Below, piece by piece: positions 3,339-30,140 of a stretch of 39,789 bases of DNA. A program made the position numbers and the translations under genes. Origin of the DNA: Bernardetiaceae bacterium (GTDB lineage: Bacteria > Bacteroidota > Bacteroidia > Cytophagales > Bernardetiaceae); contig JAFIER010000230.1 of the NCBI GenBank assembly GCA_020832465.1, forward strand, positions 1 to 39,789, given 5' to 3'. Every line of letters starts with the position of its first letter. Positions within the stretch are counted from its first letter, which is position 1. The notes below the pieces were generated by a model. It had not been told where the DNA came from. It saw only the letters and a list, made by a program, of their open reading frames with translations, and made no database searches.

Positions 3339-4289
3339 ATGCCCGTACCAGATTATATTTTGGATAACATCATAGATAGCATTACCCATGGGAGCTGTAT
3401 CCTTATATTGGGTTCGGAGTTTCAGCAGCCACTCAAAGCGGAGCTGCTTACTTATTTGGGCTATCCCGAGAATAAAAATATTGAGTACCACGATGGTGAT
3501 TTTTTTTATTTCCAAGATAAGGCAAAGCTCACTGTAAAGAATCGCATAGGCAAGCGCATTCAGGGTTTTTATAACGAACATGAAATTCCTGATTTGTATA
3601 AAAAATTAGCGCGCATTCCCTTTGCGAGCTATGTATCACTCAACCCCGATATTTTACTTAATCGGGCTTTTGATGCCTTAGCTTTTGATTATGAGTTTGC
3701 ATATTACTGCAAAGGCGTAGCTATGAACGTCCCCGTAGAGCAACTTTTACCCGATAAGCCTTTGATTTACAACCTTATGGGGAGTATCAATAACTATGGT
3801 TCTATGATACTCACGCAGGAGGATTCTTACGACTATTTGATGTCTGTTTTAGATGAGTATAAATTTGATGACGGCTTAAAACAAAATCTTAGAAATATGG
3901 AAAATATTGTATTTTTAGGGGTTTCTTTTGACCGCTGGTATTTTAAGTTTTTAATCAAACTTTTGGGCATACAAGGCATAGAGCAGTTTGCTTTTGGCAA
4001 ATACGAAAACCTCGATAACGCCTCCAAACTTTTTTGCGAAAGCCACTTAGATATTACTTTTATCGATGACAATGTCGAGGAGTTTGTAGATGTGCTTCTC
4101 GAGCGTTGTGCAGAAGACGAAGTAGAACTAAGAAAACCCCTGCGCTTAGAAGAAATGATAGAAAAACTCAACTTTTTAAGGGAAGAGGAAGCTATTACCT
4201 CAGACCTAACTAAAAAATTTGAGCTCAAACAGCGCATTCCTGAGTTGGAGAGACAAATAGACGATCTTCGTACCCAAATAAATAGTTAA
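3339..4289 (+). CDS. SIR2-like (SIR2_2/ThsA-type) domain protein with C-terminal coiled coil, 316 aa
   Basis: A Rossmann-like start GSCILILGSEF. A block YVSLNPDILLNRAF resembles the TTNYD..LE motif. LIYNLMGSINNYGSMILTQEDSYDYL resembles KLHGS....lTe.DY. VFLGVSFDRWYF resembles the fIGYSl.D motif. The last ~60 aa are a heptad-rich charged helix (LRLEEMIEKLNFLREEE...ELERQIDDLRTQI). Confidence 0.5.
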   Translation: MPVPDYILDNIIDSITHGSCILILGSEFQQPLKAELLTYLGYPENKNIEYHDGDFFYFQDKAKLTVKNRIGKRIQGFYNEHEIPDLYKKLARIPFASYVSLNPDILLNRAFDALAFDYEFAYYCKGVAMNVPVEQLLPDKPLIYNLMGSINNYGSMILTQEDSYDYLMSVLDEYKFDDGLKQNLRNMENIVFLGVSFDRWYFKFLIKLLGIQGIEQFAFGKYENLDNASKLFCESHLDITFIDDNVEEFVDVLLERCAEDEVELRKPLRLEEMIEKLNFLREEEAITSDLTKKFELKQRIPELERQIDDLRTQINS

Positions 4290-4294
4290 AATTT

Positions 4295-5938
4295 ATGAAA
4301 TCTCGTTACCCTGGCGCAAACTCTTTTCAAGAGGACGATAGTCCGCTTTTCTTTGGGCGCGATAAAGATATTCGAACGCTCTCAAGCCGCATTCTAAGTA
4401 ATACGATTACCGTTTTGCATAGCAAATCTGGGCTAGGCAAAACATCTCTTTTACAAGCTGGCGTGCTCCCGCGCATTACAAAACAAAAGGATTTTCTAAT
4501 TATCAAAATTCGCTTAGGTGCAGCAGATTCAAGTGGCTCGCTGCCGCCTTTGCAAACCTTACAGCAAGCCATACCCAAAGAATCTACCTGGGCTGACGAA
4601 ATGCTCGATGACTCCCTCTGGAGTAGCATTAAAAAGCTCGAGCTTATGGGCAAACACAAAATTATTGTTGTTATAGATCAATTTGAAGAGCTTTTTAGCT
4701 ATCAAGAACAGGATATTATACATTTTAAAAATGGTATTGCTGAAATGATTAGCGAAAATATCCCAATCCGATTGCAAGAACCTATCAATGCTGCCTTAGA
4801 TGCCGATGAAGAAAATGAAGATGAAAACGAAGACCTCGAGCTGCTTTTTATGCCCGCTGATATCAAGATAGTTTTTGCTATTCGTTCAGATAAATTTAGC
4901 CTTTTGGGTAGAATCGCTGATAAAATTCCGACACTATTACGAAATCAATACGAATTGCAAGCCTTAGACAAAAAGGGCGCAAAAGATGCTATACTCAAAC
5001 CCGCTAATGCAGAAGGTGATTTTTACTCCGCACCTTTTGTTTATACAGAGGACGCTGTAAGTAAAATTTTGAAATACCTCACAGATAGCGATACACAACC
5101 CATAGAATCTACGCAGCTACAAATTCTTTGCGATAAAATCGAAAAACTACAACTCAAAGAAGTAAAAGTAGAAGACATTCCTGATTTTGAAGACATATTT
5201 TCAGATTTTTACTACGATACGCTCGAGCTTATAGAAGAGAGCGAACGCCTCGCTGTAAAGCGTTTTGTAGAAAACGAACTGGTAAAAAAAGGACAGCGCA
5301 TCTCACTAGATCGCAACGTATGTGAAGAGTTCGTAACGGATAAGCATCTTAGTATCCTTGTCAATGCACACCTTGTAAGAGAAGAACGCAATAATTTAGG
5401 AGGTACAAACTACGAACTAGCCCACGATACGCTACTTAGCCCTATTATCAAATCTAAAGAAATTCAAAAAGCTGAAGACGATAGACGTGCGCAAGCACAA
5501 AAACTCAAAGAAGCGGAAGCACTAGCCGAAAAAGAACGTGCGGAGTTGGCAAAAGCCCAAAAGCAAGTGCGAACCGTAAGACGTGCCCTAATTTTTGCCG
5601 TAGTCATGCTTGTGCTCGCTTTTGCAGGATTAGGCTATGCCCTTATCAAAGAAAAAGAAGCACGTTTGGCAAATAAAGATGCCAAAGAACAACGCGATTT
5701 TGCTAAATCAAAAGAAAAAGAAGCACTTGAAGCACTTGCAAAATTTCAAGAAGAGCAAGCCGCAAAAGAAAAATTTACCTTTGATGCACTTAAAAAACGA
5801 GCTAGTACTATTATCGACGCAGGAGGTTGCCCCGATGACCTCCTCCGAGAAATGAAAGAAATAACCGAAAACCACCCCGAAAAAAAACAATTAGAAAAAG
5901 AAACTTATGAACTTAAAACACGCTCAAAATGTCCGTAA
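4295..5938 (+). CDS. STAND/AAA+-type P-loop NTPase with C-terminal coiled coil and a single transmembrane helix, 547 aa
   Basis: FFGRDKDIRTL precedes Walker A HSKSGLGKTSLLQAG. Walker B is KIIVVIDQFEELF (hhhhDQFEE type). A long helical domain follows, then a charged coiled coil (AEDDRRAQAQKLKEAEALAEKERAELAKAQKQ). One hydrophobic helix ALIFAVVMLVLAFAGLGYALI is followed by a ~95-aa K/E-rich tail. The gene starts 6 bp after the SIR2-like gene and overlaps the next gene by 10 bp. Confidence 0.6.
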   Translation: MKSRYPGANSFQEDDSPLFFGRDKDIRTLSSRILSNTITVLHSKSGLGKTSLLQAGVLPRITKQKDFLIIKIRLGAADSSGSLPPLQTLQQAIPKESTWADEMLDDSLWSSIKKLELMGKHKIIVVIDQFEELFSYQEQDIIHFKNGIAEMISENIPIRLQEPINAALDADEENEDENEDLELLFMPADIKIVFAIRSDKFSLLGRIADKIPTLLRNQYELQALDKKGAKDAILKPANAEGDFYSAPFVYTEDAVSKILKYLTDSDTQPIESTQLQILCDKIEKLQLKEVKVEDIPDFEDIFSDFYYDTLELIEESERLAVKRFVENELVKKGQRISLDRNVCEEFVTDKHLSILVNAHLVREERNNLGGTNYELAHDTLLSPIIKSKEIQKAEDDRRAQAQKLKEAEALAEKERAELAKAQKQVRTVRRALIFAVVMLVLAFAGLGYALIKEKEARLANKDAKEQRDFAKSKEKEALEALAKFQEEQAAKEKFTFDALKKRASTIIDAGGCPDDLLREMKEITENHPEKKQLEKETYELKTRSKCP

Positions 5939-7557
5939 AAAATGTAATCAAAAGTATATTGCTACTACTCATTATATGCAACTCAAGCTTTTATCAAGCG
6001 CAGGCGCAGAGTAGCTACCAAGAAGCAATACAGCAAGGCGATGATGCCTTCAAAAAAGGAGAGTTCAAAAAAGCGATGCAAAAATACTTCGCCGCCGAAG
6101 CCTTCGAGCCTTCTAAAAGAAGTATAGTGCAAAGCAAAATTACGAGGGTCTTTGATAAGGTCGATGGTTTGCGAGAGCAAGCCCTACAAGCTGAAAAGCG
6201 AGCACGAGACTCCGAAGCCGATGCAATCAAAAACCTTGAACGTGCCTTGAAAGTGAGTTACGGTACGTATTTTTATGAAAATAGGTTTGCACCCGCTTAT
6301 AACTCAATAAATTTTCCTACAAATGGCTACCTCGGAAAATGCTATTTTATGGATAAATACGGCGACTTTGTGCCTAAACTCAAACTTTGGGAAGCTATTA
6401 TCAAAAGTTTTGGTAATGTGAATGGTAATGATTTTTTTATCGCTGATTATGCTATTGTCAAGAAAGAAAATGAACTTGTGTATTTATTGGATACGCTCGG
6501 AAATACGTTTTTTTATTATAACAATGAACCAAATAGCGAAAATAAACAACTTGCAGAAGTGCTTATCTTGAAGGGAAATGAAAATATAGAAGCGTTTAAT
6601 AATCAAATAGATGCAAATAAAGCACTTAAAGCACTCTTTTTAACGCCTAATGGTTTCGAAAATATCAATATAAATTTGTCAGAACGCATCGAGACACTTA
6701 CTGATTTGACAGATTTTATATCCCTTAATATAAATCTTGGCGCACTGCCCGAGAGTTTTACCAAACTCAAAAATCTTCGCAAAATCGATATTTATGCTTC
6801 AGATTTAAGCCATTTGCCCACAGGGTTTGATGCCTTAGAAAATATAATGGTTCTGAGCCTTACCGAGAACAAATTTCAAACTTTTCCAGAGGATTTGTAC
6901 CGTCTTAACAAACTCGAAGCACTGGACATTTCATATAACCAAATTGAGCACATCAACTGGTCGAATCTTGATTTGCCCAATTTGCATGAACTTAATTTGA
7001 GTTTTAATCGCCTCAATACGATTGCACCCGAAATAGGCAAATTGACAACACTGCGAAGCCTAGACCTCAGTAATAATCGTTTCGAAAAACTCCCTCAAAG
7101 CATACAAAAACTCACAAAACTCAAAGCATTTTATAACAACTTCCATAATTTTGAGCAAATACCACAATCTCTATTTGCGCTATCTAATTTAGAAACACTT
7201 GGACTCTCGAGAGGAAAAATTCAGGCTATACCTAACGAAATCAGCAAACTCAAAAATCTGAAAAACCTCAACCTATCTATGAATACCATTGAAAAAATAT
7301 CGCCGAATATCCAAACACTCAAATCGCTCATCGCTTTGAATCTGGCATTCAATAAAATAGAAAAACTACCAAACGAAATAGGAAAATTAGAAAGCCTGCG
7401 CATCTTAGAACTCGATGGCAATAAGCTCACCACAATACCCAAAGGTCTCTCACAACTCAAAAACCTTAAAGTACTTAGCCTTACGGATAATCCAATCCCC
7501 TACGAAGAGCAAGAAAAAATTCGTAAGATGCTACCCAATACTGAAATTAAATTTTGA
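5929..7557 (+). CDS. secreted leucine-rich-repeat (LRR) protein with N-terminal helical (TPR-like) region, 542 aa
   Basis: Signal peptide (ILLLLIICNSSFYQAQAQ). About 12 tandem 22-24-aa LRR units (LxxLxxLxLxxNxIxxIP, e.g. LEALDISYNQIEHI, LHELNLSFNRLNTIAPEI, LRSLDLSNNRFEKLPQSI). Confidence 0.8.
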   Translation: MSVKNVIKSILLLLIICNSSFYQAQAQSSYQEAIQQGDDAFKKGEFKKAMQKYFAAEAFEPSKRSIVQSKITRVFDKVDGLREQALQAEKRARDSEADAIKNLERALKVSYGTYFYENRFAPAYNSINFPTNGYLGKCYFMDKYGDFVPKLKLWEAIIKSFGNVNGNDFFIADYAIVKKENELVYLLDTLGNTFFYYNNEPNSENKQLAEVLILKGNENIEAFNNQIDANKALKALFLTPNGFENININLSERIETLTDLTDFISLNINLGALPESFTKLKNLRKIDIYASDLSHLPTGFDALENIMVLSLTENKFQTFPEDLYRLNKLEALDISYNQIEHINWSNLDLPNLHELNLSFNRLNTIAPEIGKLTTLRSLDLSNNRFEKLPQSIQKLTKLKAFYNNFHNFEQIPQSLFALSNLETLGLSRGKIQAIPNEISKLKNLKNLNLSMNTIEKISPNIQTLKSLIALNLAFNKIEKLPNEIGKLESLRILELDGNKLTTIPKGLSQLKNLKVLSLTDNPIPYEEQEKIRKMLPNTEIKF

Positions 7558-7577: not shown

Positions 7578-7608
7578 AACTCACAGTTTTCCAAAAAAAC
7601 TGTGAGTT
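7578..7608. terminator. hairpin aactcacagtt-(9-nt loop)-aactgtgagtt, 21 bp after the LRR gene stop
   Basis: Perfect 11-bp stem read directly. No U-tract follows. Member of the GAACT(A/C)ACA palindrome family. Confidence 0.35.
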
Positions 7609-7723: not shown

Positions 7724-8296
7724 ATGTTTGAATCTACAAATTTTGAAATAGAAAAGGACAGAAATACAATTTTAATTAAGCGTCAGTGGTTTAGAGTAGA
7801 GCATATACTCATCGCATTGGTAGCTTTAGCTTGGAATGGATTTATGTTTTTTTGGATTTTTATGTTTTTTAAAAGCAATGCTGAAACAAAAATAATAGTT
7901 TTTATGACTGTTGCCGCTACTATGCACATATTGATTGGTTGGTTCATGGCTTACTACTCGCTCTGTGCTTTTTTTAATAAGACTTATATACGGCTTACAA
8001 AGCACAAACTAAGTATAAAACACGAACCACTACCCTCTTGGCAAAAAAATATCGATATCGATGTATCAAAAATCAAGTATTTCTGGGTAAAAAGCGGTAT
8101 TTCAAAAAATATAGAACAAAGCAGTTCTCAAAAACCCGTTTATTATCTGTACAATTTGTGGTGTATGGATACAAATCAAAAAACTTACAAACTTATAAGC
8201 TATATTCACACAAAAAAATCGCCTGAACCCTTAGAAAAAATAAAACAAGAAATGGAGCAGTTTTTAGCATGTCATAAAACACAAAAATTAGACTGA
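7724..8296 (+). CDS. small membrane protein, two TM helices then a possible bacterial PH (bPH_2/DUF304-like) domain, 190 aa
   Basis: Two hydrophobic helices (ILIALVALAWNGFMFFWIFMFF; IIVFMTVAATMHILIGWFMAYY) are followed by YIRLTKHKLSIKHEPLP...IDVSKIKYFWV. This resembles the Y.iT..R....G......iPL..I motif of membrane bPH proteins. Weak. Confidence 0.35.
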   Translation: MFESTNFEIEKDRNTILIKRQWFRVEHILIALVALAWNGFMFFWIFMFFKSNAETKIIVFMTVAATMHILIGWFMAYYSLCAFFNKTYIRLTKHKLSIKHEPLPSWQKNIDIDVSKIKYFWVKSGISKNIEQSSSQKPVYYLYNLWCMDTNQKTYKLISYIHTKKSPEPLEKIKQEMEQFLACHKTQKLD

Positions 8297-8866: not shown

Positions 8867-10084
8867 ACTGAAGTTACGCAGAAAGACTTCTTATAAATAT
8901 ATTTAAATCTATTTATGTATTTTATGCGGCTAATGCTTCGCCTATGGGTGTAGCTACTTGCAGACGCATATCGGAAACCTCGCGCCAAGCATTTTTTAGC
9001 GCATTTATGTATATTTTACGTTTGAGTGCATAATGATTATGACCTAATCGCTTAGACAAACACTCCCAGTCAAATGTAGCGTAAAGTACTGCAAAACAAT
9101 GATTTATCTGTGTTCTTATACTATGAGCAGGTGATTTACCATAGTTAAAGTTGGTTTTAATACTGCGATGATGTTCCTCTACTTTCCACCGTTTTTGATA
9201 GATTGTAGTCATTGCCTCGTAAGAAAGGGATAGTTCGTTACTCACAAGATAGATAATGCCCTGACTTGAGTCCTTGTTTGTAAAGACTTGTTGGCAAAGA
9301 CGTAGCGGAAAAGCTACCCCCTTTACATACACATCATAGACACTTCCCTCTTCTAACGGTAACGAATCTACCCTTTCATATCTTCCAGCTTTTTTGTCCT
9401 CTAAACTTAAAGCAACCCCATGATTGTCGTTAAGAGGCAGAACAAACTTTAAATTTAAATCATTCAAATGCAGCATGTTAGCCTTCCCATTATACCAACT
9501 ATCAGCAAGTACAAAGTCAATGGCAAGTTGATTGCTTACGCTTTGCGATACAATACGTCTAAATTTGTCATTTTTTGTTTCGCTACTTTTTCGCTTCTGC
9601 TTACCTGTTTTTTTATCCTTAATAATCTGGTCTTTGATAACAAAATCAAAAGATACAGGAATGCTATAATCAGACACATAATAAAGTGCGCTAACCTGAT
9701 TAATGCCCTTAAGACAACGTCTTTTACTGTGATCAAAGTGCCAAGCTATTAAACCATTGACCTTTGAATGGGCTTTTTCTTGAATATGATCATCAATAAT
9801 CAGTAATTTTAAATCCGTAGTCTGTGCACTTAGCCGGCGTACCGTAGGCTTAACCAGCTGCCATAAGTCTTTACCTGTGTAATCACGGGCAGATAAAAAA
9901 CGTGTGCACTTATCATGTGATATTTCATTATCGGTAAGAGCCGATAAGTTCGTTGCAGTCGCCTGATTAAAAGCAACTTGCAAAAATTGCGAATAAATAG
10001 CCAACATTTTTTTGTCCATAATCACAAATTTACGTAAATTGCACCTATATAGCAAAAAAAAAATGCGTAGTGCGTAACTTCAGT
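8867..10084 (-). mobile_element. IS4-family insertion sequence (1218 bp), apparently intact
   Basis: Perfect 14-bp terminal inverted repeats ACTGAAGTTACGCA at 8867-8880 and 10071-10084 (reverse complement). Flanked by 5-bp direct repeat TATTT (8862-8866 and 10085-10089). Encloses one transposase ORF. Confidence 0.7.
8922..10055 (-). CDS. DDE transposase, IS4 family, 377 aa
   Basis: DDE-type layout with candidate catalytic Asp residues (LLIIDDH; VLADSWY). C-terminal YREK signature YQKRWKVEEHHRSIKT typical of the IS4 family. Confidence 0.7.
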   Translation of the reverse strand: MLYRCNLRKFVIMDKKMLAIYSQFLQVAFNQATATNLSALTDNEISHDKCTRFLSARDYTGKDLWQLVKPTVRRLSAQTTDLKLLIIDDHIQEKAHSKVNGLIAWHFDHSKRRCLKGINQVSALYYVSDYSIPVSFDFVIKDQIIKDKKTGKQKRKSSETKNDKFRRIVSQSVSNQLAIDFVLADSWYNGKANMLHLNDLNLKFVLPLNDNHGVALSLEDKKAGRYERVDSLPLEEGSVYDVYVKGVAFPLRLCQQVFTNKDSSQGIIYLVSNELSLSYEAMTTIYQKRWKVEEHHRSIKTNFNYGKSPAHSIRTQINHCFAVLYATFDWECLSKRLGHNHYALKRKIYINALKNAWREVSDMRLQVATPIGEALAA

Positions 10085-10131: not shown

Positions 10132-12840
10132 TTGAGTAAAAATATTAAAGATAAGTTGGAAAAATCTTTTGATATAAGTTTCTTAAATTTTAATAAAATC
10201 GCTTACAGATTATTGATTTCTACTGCATCTGTGTCTTTCGAAAATACGAGTATTAATTTTGATAATTTAAAGCTAAATTCTGTTCAAATCAAAAACTTTA
10301 AAGGTTTTAAGGAGTGTGGAGCAGATGATAGAGGTTGTAAAATTGATATTCACAAAAATAAAACTATCATTTTTGCACCCAATGGAGGAGGTAAAACTTC
10401 TTTTTGTGAGGCTTTAGAATATAAATTAACAGGAGAAATAAAAGAGGCGAAAAGACGTGGATATGGCAAAAATCTAAACTCTTACTTTGAGAACTCTGAT
10501 AACAACGAAGTTATAAATCTGTTTAATGACAGTTTTGATAATCTTTCAGAGTCTGACAAAGAATATTTTAAAACTTGTTTTATTGAGAAAAACCGTATTC
10601 AAGAATTTGCTCTTTTAGGCTCAAAAGATACTGATACCAAAGAAAAAGATGTAATTGCTATTCTTTTTGGTTTGGAAGATTTACTTGAATTGACAACAAG
10701 ATTTGTGCAGCCCACAAGTTTTAAAATTGAACAAAAGAATACAGCCCAAGAAAAGTTAAAAAATTTGGAAAACACAAATACTAAGAACCTTACAAAGCAA
10801 AAAACAAGAACAAGCGACATTTCAAGCAAGAAAAAAGAAGTCTGTACCCTTTTTTCTTTACAAGAAATAGACTATGGAACAGAACTTTACAACCAAAAAA
10901 AACAAGATTTACAAAGTACCATCAGTGAATTAGAAAAATTAGTAAAACCTGATTCTAACAAACCTTTACAATATCATTCCAAAAATGATATTATGCAATC
11001 TTGTACTGATGTTCAAACTTTGTTTCGTGAATATCAAACCTTACAATCAGAACTAAATCAACAAAAGCAGAATGTAGATTTTAAAAATTTGTATAACGCA
11101 ATCAATGAATTTTCAAATCGCAATCTAAGTGCTTGCCCTGCTTGTGATACACCATTGAACAAAGTAGTTCGTAATCCTTTTGAAAAAGCATCAAAAGAGT
11201 TAGAAAATTTGAAAGAAATCAGTGAGAAGAGTACAAAACTCGAACAACAACTAAATAATATTTTATCAAAATATAACGACATCATAAAACTATTTCTAAA
11301 TACCTGTCACTCTAATCTCAAGGATAATAAAATGTCAAATGTAGATATGAGTAACAAAATCACGAGTTTGAGCGATATATTAGGAAACGATAAAAACAAT
11401 CCTGAAAAACAACTTGAACTTACTATTCAAGTTTGCGAATATGTTTTATCAAACCCTATTCCTTCTGAACTTGAATCTTATTTTACTCAATTAGAAAAAA
11501 TCCAAAAAGAACAAGTTGAAAAACAAAGTAGTATTCAAAGCAATCAACAAAAATTAGATCAAGCAAAAGGAAAAAGTAAAGAAGTAGATTTGCTAGAAAG
11601 ACAGTTAAAGGAGTTTGAAGATGAGTTAATTCAAATTAACGATGCTCTTACTCATTATCAATCTCAAAAGTCTGCTTTGCAAATTGAAGTTAAAAAAGAG
11701 AATCAGTTTAATACTTTTCTAAATCAAGTTCAAAGTGCATACAAAAATTTTTATAAAGACTTGCTAAACTTTAAATCAAAGGTAGAAGAACAAAATTTTG
11801 ACGGTATTCAAGATACTGCAACAAAATATTATCAGGCTATCAACAAACACGATACTGATGCAGAGCAAATAAAAAAAATTAAGTTTGTGAAAGAAGGAGA
11901 TAACTACCGAATTAAACTCATACTAAAAAATAACACCCAAGAACAAGATGCTTTTGCTTGTTTGAGTGAAGGACATACTCGTGCATTAGGGCTTTCTTTG
12001 ATGTTAGCCGTAGCCAAAGATAAACCATTTTTTATTTTTGATGACGTGGTAAATGCGATTGATACAGAACATAGGGCGAATATTATTGAAATGATTTTTA
12101 ATGATAAAACTCTTAAAAAAAAGCAGATGATTATAACTACTCATGATAGACTTTTCTGGGAAAGGTTTTGTAACGAGTCGTCAAAACGGAACACCAACAA
12201 TTATTCAAGTTATCTATTTACCACTTCTAAAAATTGTGGTGTATCGCATAAGTCTTATAATGTTGCTTTTGAAGCTAAGATTCAACAAGCCTTAAACGAT
12301 TTTGATATTAGGCAAGCATTGGTTTATTGCCGTATATGGTTCGAAACTATGGCTAAAGATTTCTGTATTAAAGAAAAAAAGAAAGCTGAAGGATATGTTT
12401 CAGAAAAAGGGGGAACTAAATATATAAATATAAGTATTGAAAGTATTTATAAAATACTTGAAAATCATTTTAGTACAAACCCTAATCAGAATTTAACGAA
12501 CTTACGAAGTAAATTTTCTTTTACGGCTCAAAATCAAGAAGCCCACGCGTTTTCAGAACACAACTACAATTTTATTCATTCTCAAACAAGTATAGAAGTC
12601 CAAGAAATTTTCAACTGGTTGAAAGAATTGAATTTTGATTTATTTGCAACCCCAAATGAAAAGAAAATTAGAGAAATTCAAGTTGACATTAAAAAAATTG
12701 AAGAAAAATTAGAAAAGTGTAACAGTCGTCTGTTATATACCAAAGAGGAAACAGAAAGACAAAGTAAAACAGAGGAAAAAGCGAATCTTGAAACGCAACT
12801 TCAAGAAAAACAAACAGAACTAAATCAATTAAATCAATGA
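10132..12840 (+). CDS. Rad50/SbcC-like SMC-type ATPase with zinc hook, 902 aa
   Basis: Walker A FAPNGGGKTSFCEAL. Coiled-coil arms of ~250 aa with CPAC (LSACPACDTPL) midway between Walker A and the signature motif (LSEGHTRALGLSL). Walker B FIFDDVVNAID. D/H-loop MIITTHD. ~230-aa C-terminal extension ends in a coiled coil. The ORF track begins at a TTG, 48 bp after the IS end, so the true start is uncertain. Confidence 0.65.
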   Translation: MSKNIKDKLEKSFDISFLNFNKIAYRLLISTASVSFENTSINFDNLKLNSVQIKNFKGFKECGADDRGCKIDIHKNKTIIFAPNGGGKTSFCEALEYKLTGEIKEAKRRGYGKNLNSYFENSDNNEVINLFNDSFDNLSESDKEYFKTCFIEKNRIQEFALLGSKDTDTKEKDVIAILFGLEDLLELTTRFVQPTSFKIEQKNTAQEKLKNLENTNTKNLTKQKTRTSDISSKKKEVCTLFSLQEIDYGTELYNQKKQDLQSTISELEKLVKPDSNKPLQYHSKNDIMQSCTDVQTLFREYQTLQSELNQQKQNVDFKNLYNAINEFSNRNLSACPACDTPLNKVVRNPFEKASKELENLKEISEKSTKLEQQLNNILSKYNDIIKLFLNTCHSNLKDNKMSNVDMSNKITSLSDILGNDKNNPEKQLELTIQVCEYVLSNPIPSELESYFTQLEKIQKEQVEKQSSIQSNQQKLDQAKGKSKEVDLLERQLKEFEDELIQINDALTHYQSQKSALQIEVKKENQFNTFLNQVQSAYKNFYKDLLNFKSKVEEQNFDGIQDTATKYYQAINKHDTDAEQIKKIKFVKEGDNYRIKLILKNNTQEQDAFACLSEGHTRALGLSLMLAVAKDKPFFIFDDVVNAIDTEHRANIIEMIFNDKTLKKKQMIITTHDRLFWERFCNESSKRNTNNYSSYLFTTSKNCGVSHKSYNVAFEAKIQQALNDFDIRQALVYCRIWFETMAKDFCIKEKKKAEGYVSEKGGTKYINISIESIYKILENHFSTNPNQNLTNLRSKFSFTAQNQEAHAFSEHNYNFIHSQTSIEVQEIFNWLKELNFDLFATPNEKKIREIQVDIKKIEEKLEKCNSRLLYTKEETERQSKTEEKANLETQLQEKQTELNQLNQ

Positions 12841-18948: not shown

Positions 18949-21525
18949 TTATGTAGCACTATCAATTGAGCCTATATCTATAATTTTGGTGCTCTCCTCT
19001 CCAAACTGACTCACAATCCGAATCGCAATTTTTTGATTAGGACTTTTGACTTCAATAGGATGAGATTGATAACCGTACAGACGGTCAAAAGCCTCTTCAT
19101 CAATTTCTATTTTTAACGTAGCTTCGAGCTTTTTCTTTGTACTTTCTTTGGCTAAGTTATCTAAGCCTCTACGCCAGTTTTTGAATGCGTCTTTATCGCC
19201 ACCGCAAAAGAATATCTGCCTAACGATAAAGCTGCTGCCATCATAATCATCATCGACCATCCAATAAGCAATATCGTGTAAGTCTCGCGCTTTAACTTCA
19301 TCTCTGATAGGGTCGTAAATATCTAAACCCTTGACTTCTACAAAAACACCTGTCTCGTCTTTTTTCAGGTCAATATCTGGCTCACCAATCGTTACAAAAC
19401 TTGCAGCTGACTTAGCAGGTTTCTTTTTCAAACCTTCTTGTAATAAATCATCGTGTATGCGGACTTTTGTAACTTCAAAAGTACCTACACTTTTCGTGTA
19501 CTGACCGCTTTCAATATCGCTTTCAAAGCTAAAACCTAAAATAATCAACCAATTCGCATCACCACGTTGGCGACACTCTTTAATTGAATCGTTTACTAAC
19601 TTCCTACTCACCGTACCAAACTTAGGTCCGATATGAAAATAGGCTTTCTCTTCACCTTTATCTGTAATGTAGAAACCCTCTGCATGTAAGGCTTCGCCAG
19701 ATAAAACCTCCACAGAACGAAAAACAACTTGCTCGTTTTTTCTGCCATTTTTGATGCCCGCACTTAGCAAATGTTCTTTGATAACCGCCTCGAAATTTTC
19801 ATTGGTTTCTAACTTCAAACGGTCATTATCTAACTCATCAGGGCTTGTAGGTTCAAAGTTTTGTAAAGTTTCTACTGTAAAAGGACCACTTACGCGAAGC
19901 ACCTTTTTGTCTATCTCGGGCTGATCGTAAAGCGTCTCCGTAGCAGGTGGCTCGTCGTTTGCCAATGCTTTAAGCGTGATATGCGGTACGGTTTTGTACA
20001 CAAAACCATGACGTATGTCCTCGTTTTGAGTATCGTAAAGCTTATAATAAGGATATACTGCCGTCATCAAACGCTGCTTGGCTATGTTCAAAGCTATCCG
20101 ACTCGTATCGATAGTGATCCAACGCCTACCCCACTGCTCCGCAACATAAGCCGTCGTACCACTCCCACAAGTAGGATCTAAAACCAAATCGCCCGGATCA
20201 GAAGTCATGAGTAAACATTTCATTATAGCTTTCTCATTTGTTTGGACTACATAAACTTTTGAGCTACTAAAACTCTGCTTTGTGTCTGACCAATGATTTG
20301 TTATTTCTGTAACAGGAAAATCATCTAAATATCTTTTATACATAATTGAACGCCCTGTTTTTAGTATTCTATCTTTTTCAGCCAGATTATCCATGCCCTC
20401 TTTTGTTGTTGACCAGTGCCTATTTGATGATGGTCTATAAACTTGACCATCAAACTTAAATTCAAAAGAACCTTTTTGAGACCATCCTGAACTTCTTAAA
20501 TCTCCTATGGCAAATACTTTTGCTCCATCAGGTATAAGTCGTTTGTCTAAAAACTCCTCTTTGGTTACATTGCGTACAGTACCATTAGGAAGCTCAAGCC
20601 ACTTGTAATTACTACCTATCTCCTTATCCATAAATAGTTTTCTCGATTTTAAGTCATCAACAGACTTAGCATACCAGATAATATAGTCTGATGTTGAAGA
20701 TAAAGTTTTAGTTGAAAAACTTGTGGTTGTCTCAAAACTTATCAAACTCACAAAATTTCCACTTCCAAATACTTCGTCCATTATATTTCTCACCAGATGC
20801 ACATTTTCGTCAGAAATTTGTACGAAGCAGGAGCCCGTTTTGTTGAGTAGTTCTTTGGCGATGAGCAGTCGGTCTCTCAGGTAGGATAGGTATGAGTGGA
20901 TACCGAGTTCCCAAGTGTCTCTGAATGCTTTGATTTGTTCGGGTTCTGCGGTGAGTGCATCGTCTTTTCCGTCGGCGACATTTCTGTCACCCATTTTGAC
21001 TTGCCAGTTTCCGCCATATTTTATGCCATAAGGAGGGTCTATGTATATGGTTTGAACTTGCCCTGCCATACCTTCTCTTTCGAGTAGGCTTGCCATGACG
21101 AGGTGGCTATCTCCTTGAATGAGTCTGTTTGTCCAGCCGTTTTTGTGTTGGTAATACTCTGATATTTTATCGAGTTCGTCTTTCTCGAGGGCATTTCCAA
21201 AAAGTTCATTGGTATCAAAGAGTTCTTTTTGGTCGCTTTCTTTTATTTTATATAGGTTTTGTATCAGGGTTTCGGGTGCAACATGTTCGTGTCGGTATAG
21301 GCTTCTTATATCTATACTGAGCGCGTCCTCTCGGTCGTCGTTTCCGTATTTGTTGAGCCAAAAGAGTTCTGGGTCTTTTCCTCGGTGCACAATAGGATTT
21401 TTGGGGATTTCGATTTTGTTGCTTCCGTTTTGCACTTTGTCATTCGCATCTTCATATCCAGCTTCTTCTTTGCTTGGGATATGTGAGCGTTGGCTATTTG
21501 TATGCTTTGTGGATTGTACTTTCAT
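18949..21525 (-). CDS. mod: Type III restriction-modification DNA methyltransferase (Mod, N6-adenine, beta class), 858 aa
   Basis: Motif [18 protein letters not shown] precedes motif [28 protein letters not shown] (permuted beta-class order). Start is 2 bp after the res stop. ~390-aa C-terminal extension after motif I. Confidence 0.8.
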
Positions 21526-21527
21526 TG

Positions 21528-24500
21528 TTATATACTTTGAATTTTTTCGGTTAATTGATTTCTGATATTTCTGATGTCATTTGCAATTTCGATAAAATGC
21601 CATTCGTGGTATTGGTATTTATCTTTGAGTGCATTGGCGGCGGGCAGCCATCGGTTTTCGACAAACCATTTTTTTTCGTCTTTATCTTGACTAAAACCAC
21701 TAATTTCGATAATAAGGTTTTTGAAGATTTTGGGATTTTGTTTAGATTTTACTTTGACGATAAAATCTGGGAAATATTTTTTGTCCTCTCCATCTTTTTT
21801 GTAAGGGATTGCAAAATCTAAGAAATCATTTTTTACATAAGCGATTACATTATCGAGTTCTTCTAAGGTTTTGGCACAAACTCCTTCCCATGTACTATCC
21901 ATAACGACATAATTAACGTGGCTTTTTTGTGTGGCATAGACTTCCCGTGTTGTGTTTCCGTTTACATATCTCGTACTGCCAAATGGATTGTAGTTGTTGA
22001 ATACGGGTTTGATAAACTCGATGGTATTTCGTTGAGTATTTATACCTCTTATAATGTGATCTACGGCTTTTTTGTGCTCATGAAAATAGAGTGTTTTTTT
22101 GAAATAAGGTTCACGATTAAGCACTGTAATTTTATGGTTGTACCATTCGGTTACTATACCTTTTAGTGTAGCAAATTTTTGAAATTCGGGTTCTCCTTCG
22201 TCATTACTAAAATGATATTTCATAAGCTCCACCGTAAGTTTGAAGATAATTTCTTGGTCTCGCTTTTCTAAGACATCGGCGAGTTGTATTGTTTCTTGTT
22301 TTGCAGAGACTGCGCTTTGCATTGTAGTTACTTTGGGTACTTTTGAGCCGTCGATTTCATAATTTTCTAAATTCGCAAAGTCGTGCGTGAGCGGTGCTTC
22401 TAAGTTTTCGGTTCTGTATGCAATAATATTTGGGAATGTAATTTCCATTTCCTGCTCTCTTTCCACAAGTGCATTGATATGGTGCATGTTTACGGGCTTT
22501 ACAACAGTATTCGTTTGTCCTGCTTTAAACATATTGAAAGGTACGCCTATAATGTGTGCATACTCTGGGGGGAATTTTTGAATGACAATTTTTCTTTTGT
22601 CATCTGTGGGGTTTCCGTCTTTATCATATCCTTGCAAAAAGTAATTGACTCTTCTTAATGCTCTTCCTGCTACTTGCTCGCAAAGTAGCTGTGAGCCAAA
22701 GGCACGCAGCCCCATGATGTGTGTAACGGTATTGGCGTCCCAGCCTTCGGTAAGCATAGATACAGAAACGACGCATCTTATATGTGCGCCTAATTTATTT
22801 GTCTGCCCTACTGTATTTACGACTTCACGCAATATTTCAGCATCGGATATTTTTTCTGTGCTTCCTTGCCCGTGCATGCGTGCATAGTCTTTTTTAAACT
22901 CTTCGATTTCTTTAGCAAAGATTTTTTTAAACTCTTTATTGATTTGTTCACCGTTTTCTAGTGCATCGCTATCAATAAGCAATGTAGGCGGTTTTTTTCG
23001 GGGTTTTGTTGTATCGGGGTCATAATTAGAAAATAAATCTTTTGCACCTACTTGAATATGCGTACCTCCCTCTCTATCAGTATATTCATATCCAGCGATG
23101 TATTTATATACTTCTTTGGATACGCTGGTATTATTACAGACTACAATAAATACAGGCGGTGTAGAAAATAAGGACACCCCGTCTTCTTGTATACTTCTTA
23201 CTCCTTTGTCGTATTTTACGTAATGTGAGTAAAACTGCTCTAAGGCATTTTTTACAAGTGCGGGTATTTTAGGTGCTTCTTCTCTAAACCTATCTCCTTT
23301 TGCTTTTGCTTCTGCTTTTCGTTTGCTTACACCTTTTTTGGGAAGTTCTTTTTTGACATGTTCATACAGGTTTTTGAGCACCGGCTTATCTATACTCTGA
23401 GTATCGTCAGTCTCTGGCATAAATGGAATTTTGACAAGTCCACTTTCTATTGCCTCCACTAAACCAAAGTCTGATACTACCCATGGAAACAAACTATAAG
23501 CCGTATAGCCCGAGCCATTTAGGTAATAGGGGGTAGCGGAGAGGTCATAGACCGCCTGCATTTTGAATTTTTGCGCAATATTGCGCAAACCGCTGAACCA
23601 GACGGCTGCTTTAGCATTTTCATCACCTTCATTATCGGTAGTTTTACTTTTAGACTTAGGTAGGTAGCAATGATGTGCCTCGTCGTTTAGTACTAAAAGT
23701 CGGCTTCCTGTTTTAAATTTTCCCAAGACACGCTTTACTACTTGCGAAAAACCTTCTTTATTATCTGTATCTATTTTTTCTCCTTTGATATTTGTTTTTC
23801 CGTCAAATGGAGTTTTTTTATTGCCTTGAAGTATTTTAGGTTCAAAGCTATGATAATTCGTAATGATTAGCCTTGCATTGAGATTTTGCAAGCGAGAAGT
23901 CATATTTGAAGGTACTAATCCTCGTATATAATAGTAATCTTCTCTATTATGTGTATGATTTTGATTATCAACAAATAGTACATTCAACCTGCTTTTGATA
24001 GTGATACCGGGAGCTACCACTAAAAAGTAATCTGCAAAGCGAGTATCATTTCTGTATTCTTGTCTGTTGAAATAGTGGTAACAAATTAAACAAGCCATAA
24101 CAACAGTTTTACCACTTCCTGTAGCCATTTTGAAAGCTATTCTAGGCAGTTGGTCTTCTGTATTTTTACTTACTGTTTGCTGTCCTTTACGTAAAAGGTT
24201 TAGAATATGTTGCCCTGGATTTGATTTCTCTGCTACTTCGTTAAACCATATCGCAGTTTCTATAGCCTCACGTTGTGCAAAAAACAGCTTTTTTACGGCA
24301 TGCCTTTCAGGATTATTAAACCAAAAGTTCAAAAGTTGCTTTGAAATTCTTGTTGTGTTGGGATAGCTACTAGCTCGCCACGCTCCTACCTCTTTTCTAC
24401 ACAGATTTACGATATGTTCTTCTTGACTACCAGCACTTTCATTCCATTCAAATATTTCTTTGCCTCCTTTTCGCTTAGTTGGCGCAACAGGAGTACTTTC

Positions 24501-24638
24501 TTTGAATATTCGTCGTCCTTTTCTGATTTCCGTATAGTCTAAGCTACCGTCACTATCAGTGCTATAATATAAAAGAGGTTCATCGTACGGACTATTTAAT
24601 ATCGGATTATCTTTGTTTGCAGTTTCTACTAAATTCAT
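21528..24638 (-). CDS. res: Type III restriction enzyme Res subunit (SF2 helicase + PD-(D/E)xK nuclease), 1036 aa
   Basis: Q-motif [10 protein letters not shown]. Motif [12 protein letters not shown]. Motif [12 protein letters not shown]. Motif III LSATPY. Motif [12 protein letters not shown]-terminal nuclease-like PDFIVKV...IIEISG. Confidence 0.8.
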
Positions 24639-25239: not shown

Positions 25240-26337
25240 TCATCGCTTCCGAAGTTCTTTCAAAATAAAATTCTGCAATTCCTCTTCCGTAGGCAGTTGG
25301 ATTTTGTATTTCGAGATAAACATTTCGTTGCCTTGTGTGGGTAGGGTGTAGCGTGCCAAAGCCTCGTTTTTATCTGTAACCAACAAAATCCCAATAGGCG
25401 GATTGTCGGTTTCTTCTTTGATTTCGGCTTGGTAGTAGTTGAGATAGGTTTGCAGTTGGGCAATGTGTCCCGCTTGCATTTTATCTACTTTGAGTTCTAT
25501 TAAGATGTGGCATTTGAGCAAACGATGGTAAAAAACCAAATCTATAAAAAAATATTCTTCGCCTATCAAAATGCGCTTCTGCCTTGCCTCAAAACAAAAA
25601 CCATTGCCGAGTTCCAAAATAAAGTCTTGTAAGTGGGCAAGCAAGGCACTTTCCAAATCATTTTCATCAAAGGCTTGCTGTGGGCTTAGTCCCAAAAACT
25701 CAAAAACATACATATCCTTAATGGCATCTTGTGGCGTTTGTACGGCGATGGTTTGTTTTATTTTCTCAAAACTCAAGTCTTTATCCGCAGATAACCCCAA
25801 ACGCTGATAAGAAAGTGTATTGATTTGTCTTTGCAACTCCCGCACCGAAGGTGTAGTTTTGAGGGTAAGCATTTCGTAGTAACGGCGTTCTTTGGGATTT
25901 TCTATCGTCATCAAAATGGAAAGATGCGTAAATGAAATCCGTTGCAACAATAGCCTCGTATAATCAATTTCTTGATTTTCAGTATTTTGTAATTCGACCA
26001 TCACTGATGGTCGAATTGAGATAGGCAATAAAAATTGCTCTTGGACAAGTACCTGCCCTAAAAGTGGATAGGTTTGATAAAACTTTCTAAACCTTTTCAA
26101 ATGCGTAGCACTATTCAAACCCTTGATGGTTTTGAGTTCCTTGGCTAAGGTCGTAAAAAGTTTTGCGCCATACTTGGCTCTATCTTGCCCGTTTTGTTCA
26201 TACTCAACAATATACGCTCCGACGCACCAATTCCGAATCGTGAGCGACTGATTGATGCTTTGAGCGGCTCGGGCTTGCAGCTCGGCGTGAGTTTGAGTGA
26301 TGCTTTGTAGTAGATCGGCGAATTGCATAGACATCAT
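25240..26337 (-). CDS. DUF1016/YhcG-like PD-(D/E)xK nuclease family protein, 365 aa
   Basis: N-terminal helical YhcG-type domain. C-terminal nuclease core EFLGLSPQQAFDENDLESALLAHLQDFILELGNGFCFEARQKRI...FFIDLVFYHRLLKCHILIELKV (D...E.K). 63 bp downstream of and co-directional with 26401-29775. Confidence 0.7.
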   Translation of the reverse strand: MMSMQFADLLQSITQTHAELQARAAQSINQSLTIRNWCVGAYIVEYEQNGQDRAKYGAKLFTTLAKELKTIKGLNSATHLKRFRKFYQTYPLLGQVLVQEQFLLPISIRPSVMVELQNTENQEIDYTRLLLQRISFTHLSILMTIENPKERRYYEMLTLKTTPSVRELQRQINTLSYQRLGLSADKDLSFEKIKQTIAVQTPQDAIKDMYVFEFLGLSPQQAFDENDLESALLAHLQDFILELGNGFCFEARQKRILIGEEYFFIDLVFYHRLLKCHILIELKVDKMQAGHIAQLQTYLNYYQAEIKEETDNPPIGILLVTDKNEALARYTLPTQGNEMFISKYKIQLPTEEELQNFILKELRKR

Positions 26338-29400: not shown

Positions 29401-29668
29401 GGGCGAACTCTCCCGTGAGCCGTGTCCACTAAAATGAAAAAAGGCGGTATCGCCCTGCTTGGCTCGGGCGAGGTGTTTTCTGAATCCTGCAATAATGGCA
29501 GCACGTGTAGCCTCTGCGTTGATAAGCACTTGGAGTTCTAACTCTTCGCTACTAAAGCGTTTTTGGAGTAGGGCTTGCATAGCTTGGGCATCAGCAGCGC
29601 AACCATTGAGCGGACTGACGGATTTGTAGTTGTCAATTCCGACGATAAAGGCAAAAATTTTAGCCATA
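26401..29668 (-). CDS. caspase-like (peptidase C14) domain fused to C-terminal alpha/beta-hydrolase (lipase/esterase-type) domain; 1089 aa from MAKIFAFIVGIDNY, or 1124 aa from the upstream ATG at 29775
   Basis: Caspase His/Cys dyad: FFHFSGHGS and LDCCHSGSG (DxCHSG metacaspase/orthocaspase signature). C-terminal hydrolase: oxyanion-type LLFVHGIIGNTSEM. Nucleophile elbow VDIVAHSMGGLVSRY (GxSxG). ~600-aa central region not recognised. Confidence 0.7.
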
Positions 29669-30140
29669 ATTTCTAAGGGGGTAAGAATTAAGTTAAGTTT
29701 TTGTGTACAATAGTTTTTTGTACGTAAAAAGAGGGGTTGGCGTTGTGTTTTTTTTGGATTGATTGCAACCGTCAAGAGGCTACCAATATGTAGTCCCTAA
29801 CGGGGCAAAAATGAACCTTTGCATCTGTAGCTACCAAGGTATACACCACCCCTCCCTCTTGGAACGTAGATACTCGATTTTCTCGAATAGTAAGTGCTTA
29901 GATTTGCTCATGATTCAACATAATTTTAAAGGTTATTAAGATTCCGAATTTACGAAACTTATGTGGATAAAGCAAAATTTATATAATTCTCATCTGAGCC
30001 AGAACCTTCTGCTTCAAGCTGCTGTAACTAAATACTCCTGCCTCAGTATTTAGCAACAGATATTACTTAAAAATTTTGATTACGCTAAAAAAACATAGAA
30101 AAAATTAGTAAAATTCGCAAAATTAGATTATATTTACACG

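Follow-up and report, generated by a model that had tools for sequence, protein, structure and literature searches.

A predicted split, membrane-spanning nSTAND1 NTPase operon with a putatively secreted leucine-rich repeat partner in a Bernardetiaceae bacterium

Can a bacterial STAND NTPase read the periplasm through a membrane-spanning helix, with its sensor carried by a separate, exported protein? This question is raised by three closely packed open reading frames (ORFs) on the plus strand of a contig from a Bernardetiaceae (Bacteroidota) metagenome-assembled genome, 39,789 nt in length, which was analysed as a whole and is called the window here. To our knowledge, all bacterial STAND/NLR-like immune proteins characterised so far sense their triggers in the cytoplasm. 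The three genes code for a SIR2-like protein, an nSTAND1 NTPase and a leucine-rich repeat (LRR) protein, and an original prediction made from the sequence had proposed that a signal sensed by the LRR protein is relayed across the membrane to the NTPase and to a SIR2 effector. With reasonable but by no means high confidence, the operon is considered here to encode an NLR-like receptor that belongs to the nSTAND1 family of conflict systems, is split, spans the membrane and works by a full outside-in mechanism with a docked sensor. The end of the first gene and the start of the second are separated by 5 nt, and the genes are the following.

3339 to 4289, plus strand: SIR2-like protein of 316 amino acids, first gene of the operon, predicted to be cytoplasmic (Pfam SIR2_2)
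4295 to 5938, plus strand: nSTAND1 NTPase of 547 amino acids, predicted single-pass inner-membrane protein with the N-terminus inside and the C-terminus outside (Pfam nSTAND1, AlphaFold2)
5929 to 7557, plus strand: LRR partner of 542 amino acids, predicted to be secreted, the start of which overlaps the NTPase stop by 10 nt (Pfam)

Family and predicted membrane topology of the NTPase

The NTPase is identical to JJT94_14775. Its match to Pfam nSTAND1 (PF20703) has a score of 101.7 bits, with a cut-off of 27.1, and aligns amino acids 5-409 with positions 2-369 of the 379 in the profile; 73 homologues were found by sequence search. The AlphaFold2 model, obtained with 39 homologues (pLDDT 89.3), has revealed a globular STAND module in amino acids 1-377, with an AAA+/Cdc6-Orc-like core and helical and winged-helix domains, and its fold was matched by Foldseek to Cdc6/Orc1, NLRC4, CED-4, Apaf-1 and plant NLRs, with ZAR1 and NRC among the matches (E values from 1e-9 to 1e-5). 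An N-terminal EAD is absent, and the C-terminal sensor that nSTAND1 proteins carry in cis is also missing, with only a tail of 96 amino acids past the transmembrane (TM) helix and the LRRs encoded by a separate gene. The protein is a member of the nSTAND1 family by profile, motif and fold, not by an in-cis sensor. The features of the NTPase are listed below.

4418 to 4447, plus strand: Walker A motif HSKSGLGKTS, amino acids 42-51, with S45, G46, G48, K49 and S51 invariant in 39 homologues
4664 to 4690, plus strand: Walker B motif IVVIDQFEE, amino acids 124-132, with D128, Q129, E131 and E132 invariant in 39 homologues
5426 to 5818, plus strand: continuous predicted helix of 131 residues, amino acids 378-508 (DSSP of the AlphaFold2 model)
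5585 to 5647, plus strand: TM helix ALIFAVVMLVLAFAGLGYALI, amino acids 431-451
5648 to 5935, plus strand: predicted extracytoplasmic tail of 96 residues after the TM helix, amino acids 452-547
5828 to 5935, plus strand: terminal helical hairpin CPDDLLREMKEITENHPEKKQLEKETYELKTRSKCP (AlphaFold2 helices 514-525 and 530-543)

All TM and signal-peptide calls were made with our own heuristics. The segment ALIFAVVMLVLAFAGLGYALI is the sole 19-residue Kyte-Doolittle peak in the NTPase (2.6), and a simple Hessa-scale sum gives about -2.5 kcal/mol. It lies in the free helix of 131 residues, unpacked against the globular domain in the model, and this helix is predicted to consist of a cytoplasmic stalk of about 53 residues, the TM segment and a periplasmic stalk of about 57 residues. 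The tail contains 23 Lys plus Arg residues, 22 Asp plus Glu residues and two cysteines, Cys512 and Cys546, which flank both ends of the terminal hairpin. A GGCP...HPDS...C motif is kept in the tails of relatives, and the hairpin with its two cysteines is a candidate disulfide staple and docking surface.

A genome scan with one genome per species yielded 80 NTPase loci, 69 of them with a complete NTPase ORF, and exactly one TM helix was found at the equivalent place in 64 of these 69, so widely that coincidence is ruled out. The TM-bearing homologues span Bacteroidota, Proteobacteria, Acidobacteriota, Verrucomicrobiota and Mycolicibacterium; likewise, almost all the full-length proteins among the 73 sequence homologues show a single hydrophobic helix at amino acids 430-480. 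Across the homologues the hydrophobicity of the helix is kept and its sequence is not, and the uncharged TM core has a median length of 22 residues. In 121 single-TM homologues a positive-inside bias was observed, with a mean of 5.9 Lys or Arg in the 15 residues on the N-terminal side of the helix and 3.2 in the 15 residues on the C-terminal side, the N-terminal flank being the richer one in 113 of the 121 (Wilcoxon p 1e-20).

The domains that relatives carry after the TM helix are of kinds typical of sensors or of the envelope. WD40 was found in 17 of 60 long tails; TPR, MORN, LRR and FGE-sulfatase/CLec domains also occur, and an OmpA-family domain was observed in a single case. Domains of the OmpA family bind peptidoglycan. 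The part that follows the helix is predicted to be extracytoplasmic because the ATPase needs cytoplasmic ATP and the two ends of a one-helix protein lie on opposite sides of the membrane. Taken with the tests described above, the family sequences make it very probable that the NTPase is a single-pass protein with the ATPase inside and the tail outside. The original prediction is upheld in its single strongly hydrophobic helix, which is not buried in the model, followed by a tail of about 95 amino acids, and, by the bias of the family, in the inside position of the NTPase and the outside position of the tail. Its description of the topology as unusual has to be withdrawn, since nearly all the relatives have the TM helix, and most of them carry a repeat sensor fused in cis past it, the split form being the minority.

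The LRR partner and its coupling to the NTPase

The features of the LRR protein, in order, are as follows.

5929 to 6006, plus strand: predicted Sec/signal peptidase I signal peptide MSVKNVIKSILLLLIICNSSFYQAQA, with Gln at +1 (n-h-c pattern and Q-rule)
6007 to 6228, plus strand: conserved helical module at the mature N-terminus, named hp, QSSYQEAIQQGDDAFKKGEFKKAMQKYFAAEAFEPSK..., followed by a coiled-coil stretch; the most conserved region of the partners
6250 to 6528, plus strand: WG-repeat-like beta domain, from YFYENRFAPAY through YFMDKYGDFVPKLKLW to YLLDTLGN, conserved in partners, nSTAND1 fusions and TIR fusions
6691 to 7518, plus strand: leucine-rich repeats, about 11-12 units (Pfam LRR_8, LRR_14 and LRR_4, and motif positions)

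The N-terminus of the LRR protein is composed of MSVKNVIK (the n-region, which contains two Lys), SILLLLIIC (the h-region, of 9 residues) and NSSFYQAQA, which ends in an AxA site and is followed by Gln (QSS). Its best 19-residue window gives +5 kcal/mol by the Hessa-scale sum, too polar for a membrane anchor; the N-terminus is too short and polar to anchor the protein and therefore fits a cleaved signal peptide, not a signal anchor. In Bacteroidetes, Gln at +1 in signal peptidase I substrates is described as the Q-rule (PMC5837995, PMC10653852). A lipoprotein reading, with LLIIC before Asn, was set aside as less probable, with Ile at -1 giving a poor lipobox by inspection and Ala followed by Gln as the family consensus.

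An exhaustive search with the first 262 amino acids of the LRR protein yielded 298 cluster representatives, nearly all of them aligned from their own N-terminus. A signal-peptide-like N-terminus was found in 125 of 150 partner homologues, and [AGS]Q directly precedes the conserved mature motif (NYxEAIQQGDxAFxxGxYKxAINKYFAAEAFDPSKK...) in 108 of 111. Position 5929 is the first start codon past the upstream in-frame stop, and with these homologues it supports the signal peptide of the original prediction and the start at 5929, not at an internal Met. The order in the partners is the hp module, the coiled-coil stretch, the WG-repeat-like domain and then LRRs or other domains. The hp module, of about 75 residues, has a weak similarity to TPR_11 (E 0.036), and the WG-like domain has no significant Pfam match, its name reflecting motif resemblance only. 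The repeats themselves match LRR_8 with 119.6 bits in 6 stretches, and also LRR_14 and LRR_4; ten LxxLxLxxNxL motifs are located in amino acids 233-523, and the C-terminus, considered for a possible T9SS cargo, has no Pfam match besides the LRRs.

The association of the two genes was observed from both directions. In the genome set, a downstream gene bearing a signal peptide accompanies 7 of the 12 short-tail NTPases versus 5 of the 53 long-tail ones (Fisher p 6e-4). A metagenome scan seeded with partner motifs only gave 79 loci, including 47 split loci with enough upstream sequence, and a one-TM nSTAND1 gene ends directly before the partner gene in 40 of these 47. The tails of the split-type NTPases have 74-117 amino acids in 36 of 38 cases, and the partners behind a one-TM nSTAND1 have a hydrophobic N-terminus in all 40.

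Fused forms were also found. Six further loci contain nSTAND1-TM-WG-like-LRR fusions without the hp module, and in the nSTAND1-TM-coiled coil-WG-like-LRR protein P0005 the region after the TM helix aligns to amino acids 82-373 of the LRR protein (E 4e-17). The hp module is present in split systems only and absent from the fused ones; since it appears exactly when the covalent link is missing, it is read as a putative docking adaptor for the NTPase tail. Single chains of the TIR-TM-WG-like-LRR type were also observed in the metagenome loci (L098:6416-8467, L134:2137-3885, L139:1405-2838 and L103:1815-3695), with an N-terminal TIR, one TM helix, an Arg/Lys-rich flank on the TIR side and a WG-like domain and LRRs as in the partner. 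Judged from these sequences, the TIR domain would be inside and the LRRs outside, an inverted Toll-like-receptor layout in bacteria.

About 17 loci have two to four tandem hp-module partner paralogues behind one NTPase; the operon studied here has one partner. Examples among loci L087-L165 are L091:1680-8758, L154:4730-11485 and L145:3013-8665, with C-terminal parts that differ. The tandem partners look like interchangeable sensor subunits.

Tails and hp modules nearly always have 0 or 2 cysteines, and the pair brackets a helical hairpin. Among loci L089-L163, the Cys pair is located in the tail at 11 loci, in the partner hp module at 12, in both at 0 and in neither at 8 (Fisher p 0.0014, an optimistic value), and the NTPase studied here has a tail-type pair (C512, C546). 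Each tail sequence class has one hp class as its counterpart, and each hp class one tail class. The sequence D[ST][AILVMT] is the Bacteroidota O-glycosylation sequon; it is present in 31 of 38 split-type tails (L089-L164), for which shuffled sequences give a mean of 6.9, and in most cases it belongs to a conserved HPDS[IVL] loop; its density there is 4 times that in the cytoplasmic part. The cysteine pairs, the sequons and the class matching are in line with a compartment that is oxidising and glycosylating, and with tails and partners that form cognate pairs. The functional coupling of the NTPase and LRR genes, as originally proposed, is supported by the two-sided synteny, the Rosetta-stone fusions and the covariation of tail and partner subtypes.

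The SIR2-like protein and the genomic neighbourhood

The product of the first gene matches Pfam SIR2_2 (PF13289) with 32 bits, against a cut-off of 24.5 (E 1.5e-7), and has no hydrophobic segment. Of the 77 genome loci that could be assessed, 57 have a SIR2-like gene immediately before the NTPase gene, and the two often overlap by 4 nt. The AlphaFold2 model (pLDDT 80.9) has its best Foldseek matches in the Protein Data Bank (PDB) with the SIR2 domains of Thoeris ThsA, DSR2 and KomC (E from 4e-9 to 1e-6, TM-score about 0.5). A family profile of 16 sequences reached ThsA with a weak match (E 9e-4), and a PDB sequence search with a 10-sequence profile gave no SIR2 match. The position of the catalytic residue is the following.

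3768 to 3782, plus strand: YNLMG motif at the position of the canonical SIR2 catalytic His, occupied here by Met147 (HMMER alignment to ThsA 6lhx/8bto)

The KMHGD motif of ThsA (H152) aligns with YNllG in the family, and this column is hydrophobic in all of the 16 and 27 aligned relatives, in whose alignments no His is conserved anywhere. Throughout the family, Met or a different hydrophobic residue takes the place of the His found in ThsA (H152), DSR2 (H171) and KomC (H146). The TTNYD motif of ThsA (N112) aligns with s-l-t-p-D, which reads SLNPD (N102) in the protein studied here; the Rossmann Gly and the Asp of the N-x-D motif are conserved in the family as in ThsA, DSR2 and KomC. The protein differs from these in that it has no SLOG or other ligand-sensing domain, and from most of its own relatives in that it keeps the Asn. 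The matched PDB entries include His mutants of DSR2 and KomC as NAD+-bound forms. With the catalytic His missing, the canonical NADase mechanism is unlikely and an output by NAD+ depletion is therefore unsupported. The SIR2 effector of the original prediction has a ThsA/DSR2-like predicted fold, and an NADase output is doubtful. The protein may be a non-canonical enzyme with new chemistry, a pseudoenzyme, or an adaptor between the NTPase and effectors.

The original prediction envisaged that a coiled coil of the SIR2-like protein might pair with one of the NTPase. The C-terminal helices of the SIR2-like protein, amino acids 270-315, occupy the position of EAD7 (PF19960), PF19964 or TIR in relatives. 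In close relatives (L081:3943-6026, L084:3518-5630 and L085:256-1939) the SIR2-like protein ends in EAD7, and a further upstream gene codes for CHAT-EAD7 or for EAD7 alone; other SIR2-like relatives have PF19964 or a fused TIR domain, and the protein studied here has none of the three. An assignment of the C-terminus to the EACC1 module (Kaur et al. 2020) was rejected, EACC1 being a TM-containing constant component paired with caspases. In PADLOC-DB v2, the SIR2-like protein gave weak matches only, to the SIR2 parts of LmuA and ThsA.

Downstream of the LRR gene the following element was found.

7578 to 7608, plus strand: hairpin with a 13-bp stem, 20 nt past the LRR stop (RNAfold, -16.5 kcal/mol)

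This hairpin is a possible end of the operon; the intrinsic-terminator scan did not call it, the T run being absent, and the sigma-70 promoter scan gave fewer sites than shuffles. After the hairpin, and 166 nt from the LRR gene, an ORF at 7724-8296 (plus strand) codes for 190 amino acids with two hydrophobic helices. Pfam, PADLOC and NCBIfam gave no match for it, and tblastn gave none in any fetched locus; for lack of a family match and of homologues in these loci it was set aside as a component of the system, and it is probably unrelated.

Beyond it, an IS4-type transposase ORF (8922-10055, minus strand), named from its translation alone, is located between the operon and a gene for a 902-aa SMC/Rad50-like ATPase (10132-12840, plus strand), which matches the PADLOC LmuB (Lamassu) models (E 4e-14) and has no recognised LmuA-like gene beside it. 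Other genes, all on the minus strand, are a type III restriction-modification pair (N6_N4_Mtase at 18949-21525 and ResIII at 21528-24638), a YhcG-type PDDEXK nuclease (25240-26337), a 1124-aa protein with caspase (Peptidase_C14) and alpha/beta-hydrolase domains (26401-29775), and an 825-aa protein with major-vault-protein shoulder and vault repeat domains (36919-39396; MVP_shoulder E 2e-26). Major-vault-protein domains are uncommon in bacteria. The type III restriction-modification pair, the PDDEXK nuclease, the caspase-hydrolase, the LmuB-like ATPase and the IS4 transposase fit the appearance of a defence island.

Proposed mechanism, alternatives and significance

In the proposed mechanism, the NTPase would reside in the inner membrane with its ATPase in the cytoplasm, and its long helix would cross to the periplasm and end in a Cys-stapled hairpin; the domain layout and the conserved TM helix are observed here, and the topology is indicated by family-wide signals. 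The LRR protein would be exported through Sec, and signal peptidase I would cleave it, as its conserved signal peptide and the Q-rule suggest. The hp module would then dock non-covalently on the hairpin and stalk of the NTPase tail, replacing the covalent link of the fused relatives, a step to which the fusions, the synteny and the subtype covariation point. By analogy with STAND/NLR proteins, an envelope ligand bound by the WG-like/LRR module may change the state or the oligomerisation of the stalks and, through the TM helix, set off NTP-dependent STAND switching. Finally, the activated NTPase would act via the co-translated SIR2-like protein; in relatives, EAD and TIR modules would recruit or provide effectors. 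The topology and the coupling in the originally proposed receptor-like relay, and an outside-in arrangement of this kind, have good computational support; the relay itself, the docking, the ligand and the output are inferred.

Several observations weigh against this mechanism. The partner gene has no NTPase directly upstream in 7 of the 47 loci, and some partners may act alone or in trans; the ORFs of these loci were called by a crude longest-ORF procedure. In the NTPase studied here, the 15-residue flanks of the TM helix are tied in Lys plus Arg (5 vs 5), and net charge alone (+4 vs +1) favours the N-in orientation, weakly. Its tail reads HPEK and lacks the HPDS/O-glycosylation motif. The covariation of tail and partner can also reflect the co-inheritance of adjacent genes; this co-inheritance and the close relationship among several of the loci make the p-values optimistic. 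On the output side, the catalytic Asn position is occupied by Thr, Met, Ile or Ser in most relatives of the SIR2-like protein, which has two C-terminal helices and no detectable EAD, unlike its relatives; without the catalytic His, the window contains no obviously competent cytoplasmic effector. A defence role is also unproven, since no model of PADLOC-DB v2 matches the NTPase or the LRR protein.

A role against invaders or in cell suicide is suggested by the defence-island setting and by the partners in the family; cues other than phage are just as possible. The same transmembrane receptor might not be anti-phage. It would then respond to damage of the envelope, to toxins of competitors or to contact with self or non-self in Bacteroidota that are filamentous or multicellular, leading to a programmed-cell-death or developmental decision. 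This proposal is unlikely but deserves to be kept in mind. In multicellular bacteria, an enrichment of nSTAND1 and related conflict systems has been described (PMC8195603, PMC7159879), the relatives come largely from Saprospiraceae, Lewinellaceae, Chitinophagales and Bernardetiaceae, and no known defence model matches the NTPase or its partner; however, the neighbourhood resembles a defence island, and the EAD, CHAT and TIR partners are typical of counter-invader systems. The evidence collected here does not discriminate between triggers.

The signal could also run from the inside to the outside. A cytoplasmic event would be detected by the NTPase, possibly aided by the SIR2-like protein, which lacks the His and would sense a nucleotide or NAD derivative, and the periplasmic LRR, WD40 or TPR part would be the output, in envelope remodelling, receptor masking, adhesion or kin recognition. 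A SIR2-like protein without the canonical catalytic His may bind rather than cleave, there is no other cytoplasmic effector in the window, and LRR proteins can be structural or adhesive. We regard this direction as rather improbable, given that the domains after the TM helix belong to STAND/NLR sensor classes, including FGE-sulfatase/CLec, which are targets of diversity-generating retroelements (DGRs) in relatives (PMC8195603, PMC10907252), that clear cytoplasmic effectors are added in relatives, by a TIR domain joined to the SIR2-like protein, by genes for CHAT-EAD7 or by chains of the TIR-TM-LRR type, and that tandem variable partners behind one NTPase fit interchangeable sensors.

It is very improbable that the LRR protein acts independently, secreted or at the surface, and merely adjoins the NTPase, with the tail as an anchor only and the NTPase sensing in the cytoplasm or the membrane. 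Besides the 7 of 47 partner loci without an adjacent NTPase, one partner homologue (P0081) was found on a 2-kb contig beside a transposase fragment, and LRR proteins with signal peptides are common in Bacteroidota, as shown by generic LRR matches in NCBIfam; against this stand the 10-nt gene overlap, the synteny from both directions, the WG-like/LRR module also fused behind the TM helix, the restriction of the hp module to split sensors and the matching classes of tail and hp. An entirely cytoplasmic system, with the hydrophobic helix buried in an oligomer, for example, and no signal peptide on the LRR protein, is what has been assumed for characterised STAND proteins and agrees with the intracellular location that Kaur et al. 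give for the FGS sensors of nSTAND1 proteins (PMC8195603), but it is extremely improbable in view of the hydrophobicity of the helix (2.6), its uncharged core (median 22 residues), the conservation of hydrophobicity while the sequence varies, the positive-inside bias, the free 131-residue helix, the signal peptidase I/Q-rule N-termini of the partners, the paired cysteines, the sequon enrichment and the OmpA domain past the TM helix in one relative.

The split, membrane-spanning receptor that is preferred here was compared with known systems. With the nSTAND1 conflict systems (Kaur, Iyer, Burroughs and Aravind 2021, eLife; PMC8195603) the operon shares the NTPase family and, as far as described in the relevant passages of that article, the logic of an effector or EAD combined with a variable repeat or lectin sensor; relatives of the NTPase carry FGE-sulfatase/CLec sensors and EAD7-bearing effectors. 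It differs in that the sensors are intracellular in those passages, whereas here a TM helix between NTPase and sensor is the rule, and in that the sensor of this locus is a separate protein, predicted to be secreted, with its own docking module, the NTPase having no N-terminal EAD. The passages of PMC8195603 on the relevant terms contain no discussion of a TM helix or a signal peptide.

The Avs families and bacterial NACHT (bNACHT) proteins have in common with this system a P-loop STAND core with a Cdc6/NLR-like fold, repeat-type sensors and immune-type partners, but they are soluble single chains with N-terminal effectors that sense phage proteins in the cytoplasm, and none has been shown with a sensor in trans. 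The DGR-diversified STAND-CLec antigen sensors (Dore et al. 2024, PMC10907252) also combine nSTAND1 or NACHT with a C-terminal ligand-binding domain, and some DGR targets are predicted to be periplasmic (CLec domains) or to have a signal peptide; here, in contrast, there is no DGR in the window, the sensor is LRR and not CLec, and a split sensor with a docking module is undescribed in PMC10907252. In one relative (L085:5160-7250, minus strand), an RVT_1 reverse transcriptase, an HRDC protein and an FGE-sulfatase gene were observed about 1.6 kb downstream of a short-tail nSTAND1 operon, and this region is likely a DGR. Toll-like receptors and plant LRR receptor-like proteins with co-receptors resemble the operon in the LRR ectodomain, the single TM helix, the cytoplasmic immune module and the non-covalent ligand-binding subunit, and the TIR-TM-WG-like-LRR relatives are closer still. 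The likeness is an analogy only; the cytoplasmic domain is N-terminal here (inverted), the transducer would be a STAND NTPase, and there is no homology beyond the generic LRR and TIR folds.

Periplasmic sensing by TM-type bacterial STANDs has been suggested briefly (Kibby et al., preprint 10.1101/2022.07.19.500537; Dore et al., PMC10907252), and as an idea it is not new. In the literature covered on transmembrane STAND/NLR proteins and on SIR2, STAND and the periplasm, a coverage that is incomplete, the arrangement is undescribed beyond these brief remarks; with the same limit, no description of bacterial TIR-TM-LRR proteins was found, nor any earlier account of a single TM helix in nearly all members of this nSTAND1 clade, of a secreted sensor split off with its own docking module, of partners in tandem arrays or of a SIR2-like companion that lacks the His. 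This absence is weak evidence and no proof of novelty, because many subscription papers lie outside the literature covered.

A more general proposal is advanced tentatively, being partly an analogy and somewhat doubtful as a whole. A whole clade of bacterial STAND NTPases would function as transmembrane pattern-recognition receptors; damage or invaders would be sensed in the periplasm, ahead of entry into the cytoplasm or with no such entry, and Bacteroidota would have a plug-in design of secreted, interchangeable sensors, often in tandem, which share a docking module for the tail of one NTPase; the same sensor may also be wired to TIR across the membrane, by analogy like Toll-like receptors and plant receptor/co-receptor pairs. 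The split form is tractable, with a small tail, a docking module of about 75 residues and sensors that can be swapped or deleted, and it would show in nature how a receptor is assembled from modules. A second problem is posed by the SIR2-like protein without the His, conserved beside most of these NTPases, which would have either new chemistry or the role of an adaptor. If the proposed mechanism is true, bacteria would employ an NLR-type switch at the surface, as a receptor to which a helix across the membrane gives access to the periplasm, and the cues in question would be those of the envelope stage, such as injection machinery, lysis proteins, toxins and neighbouring cells.

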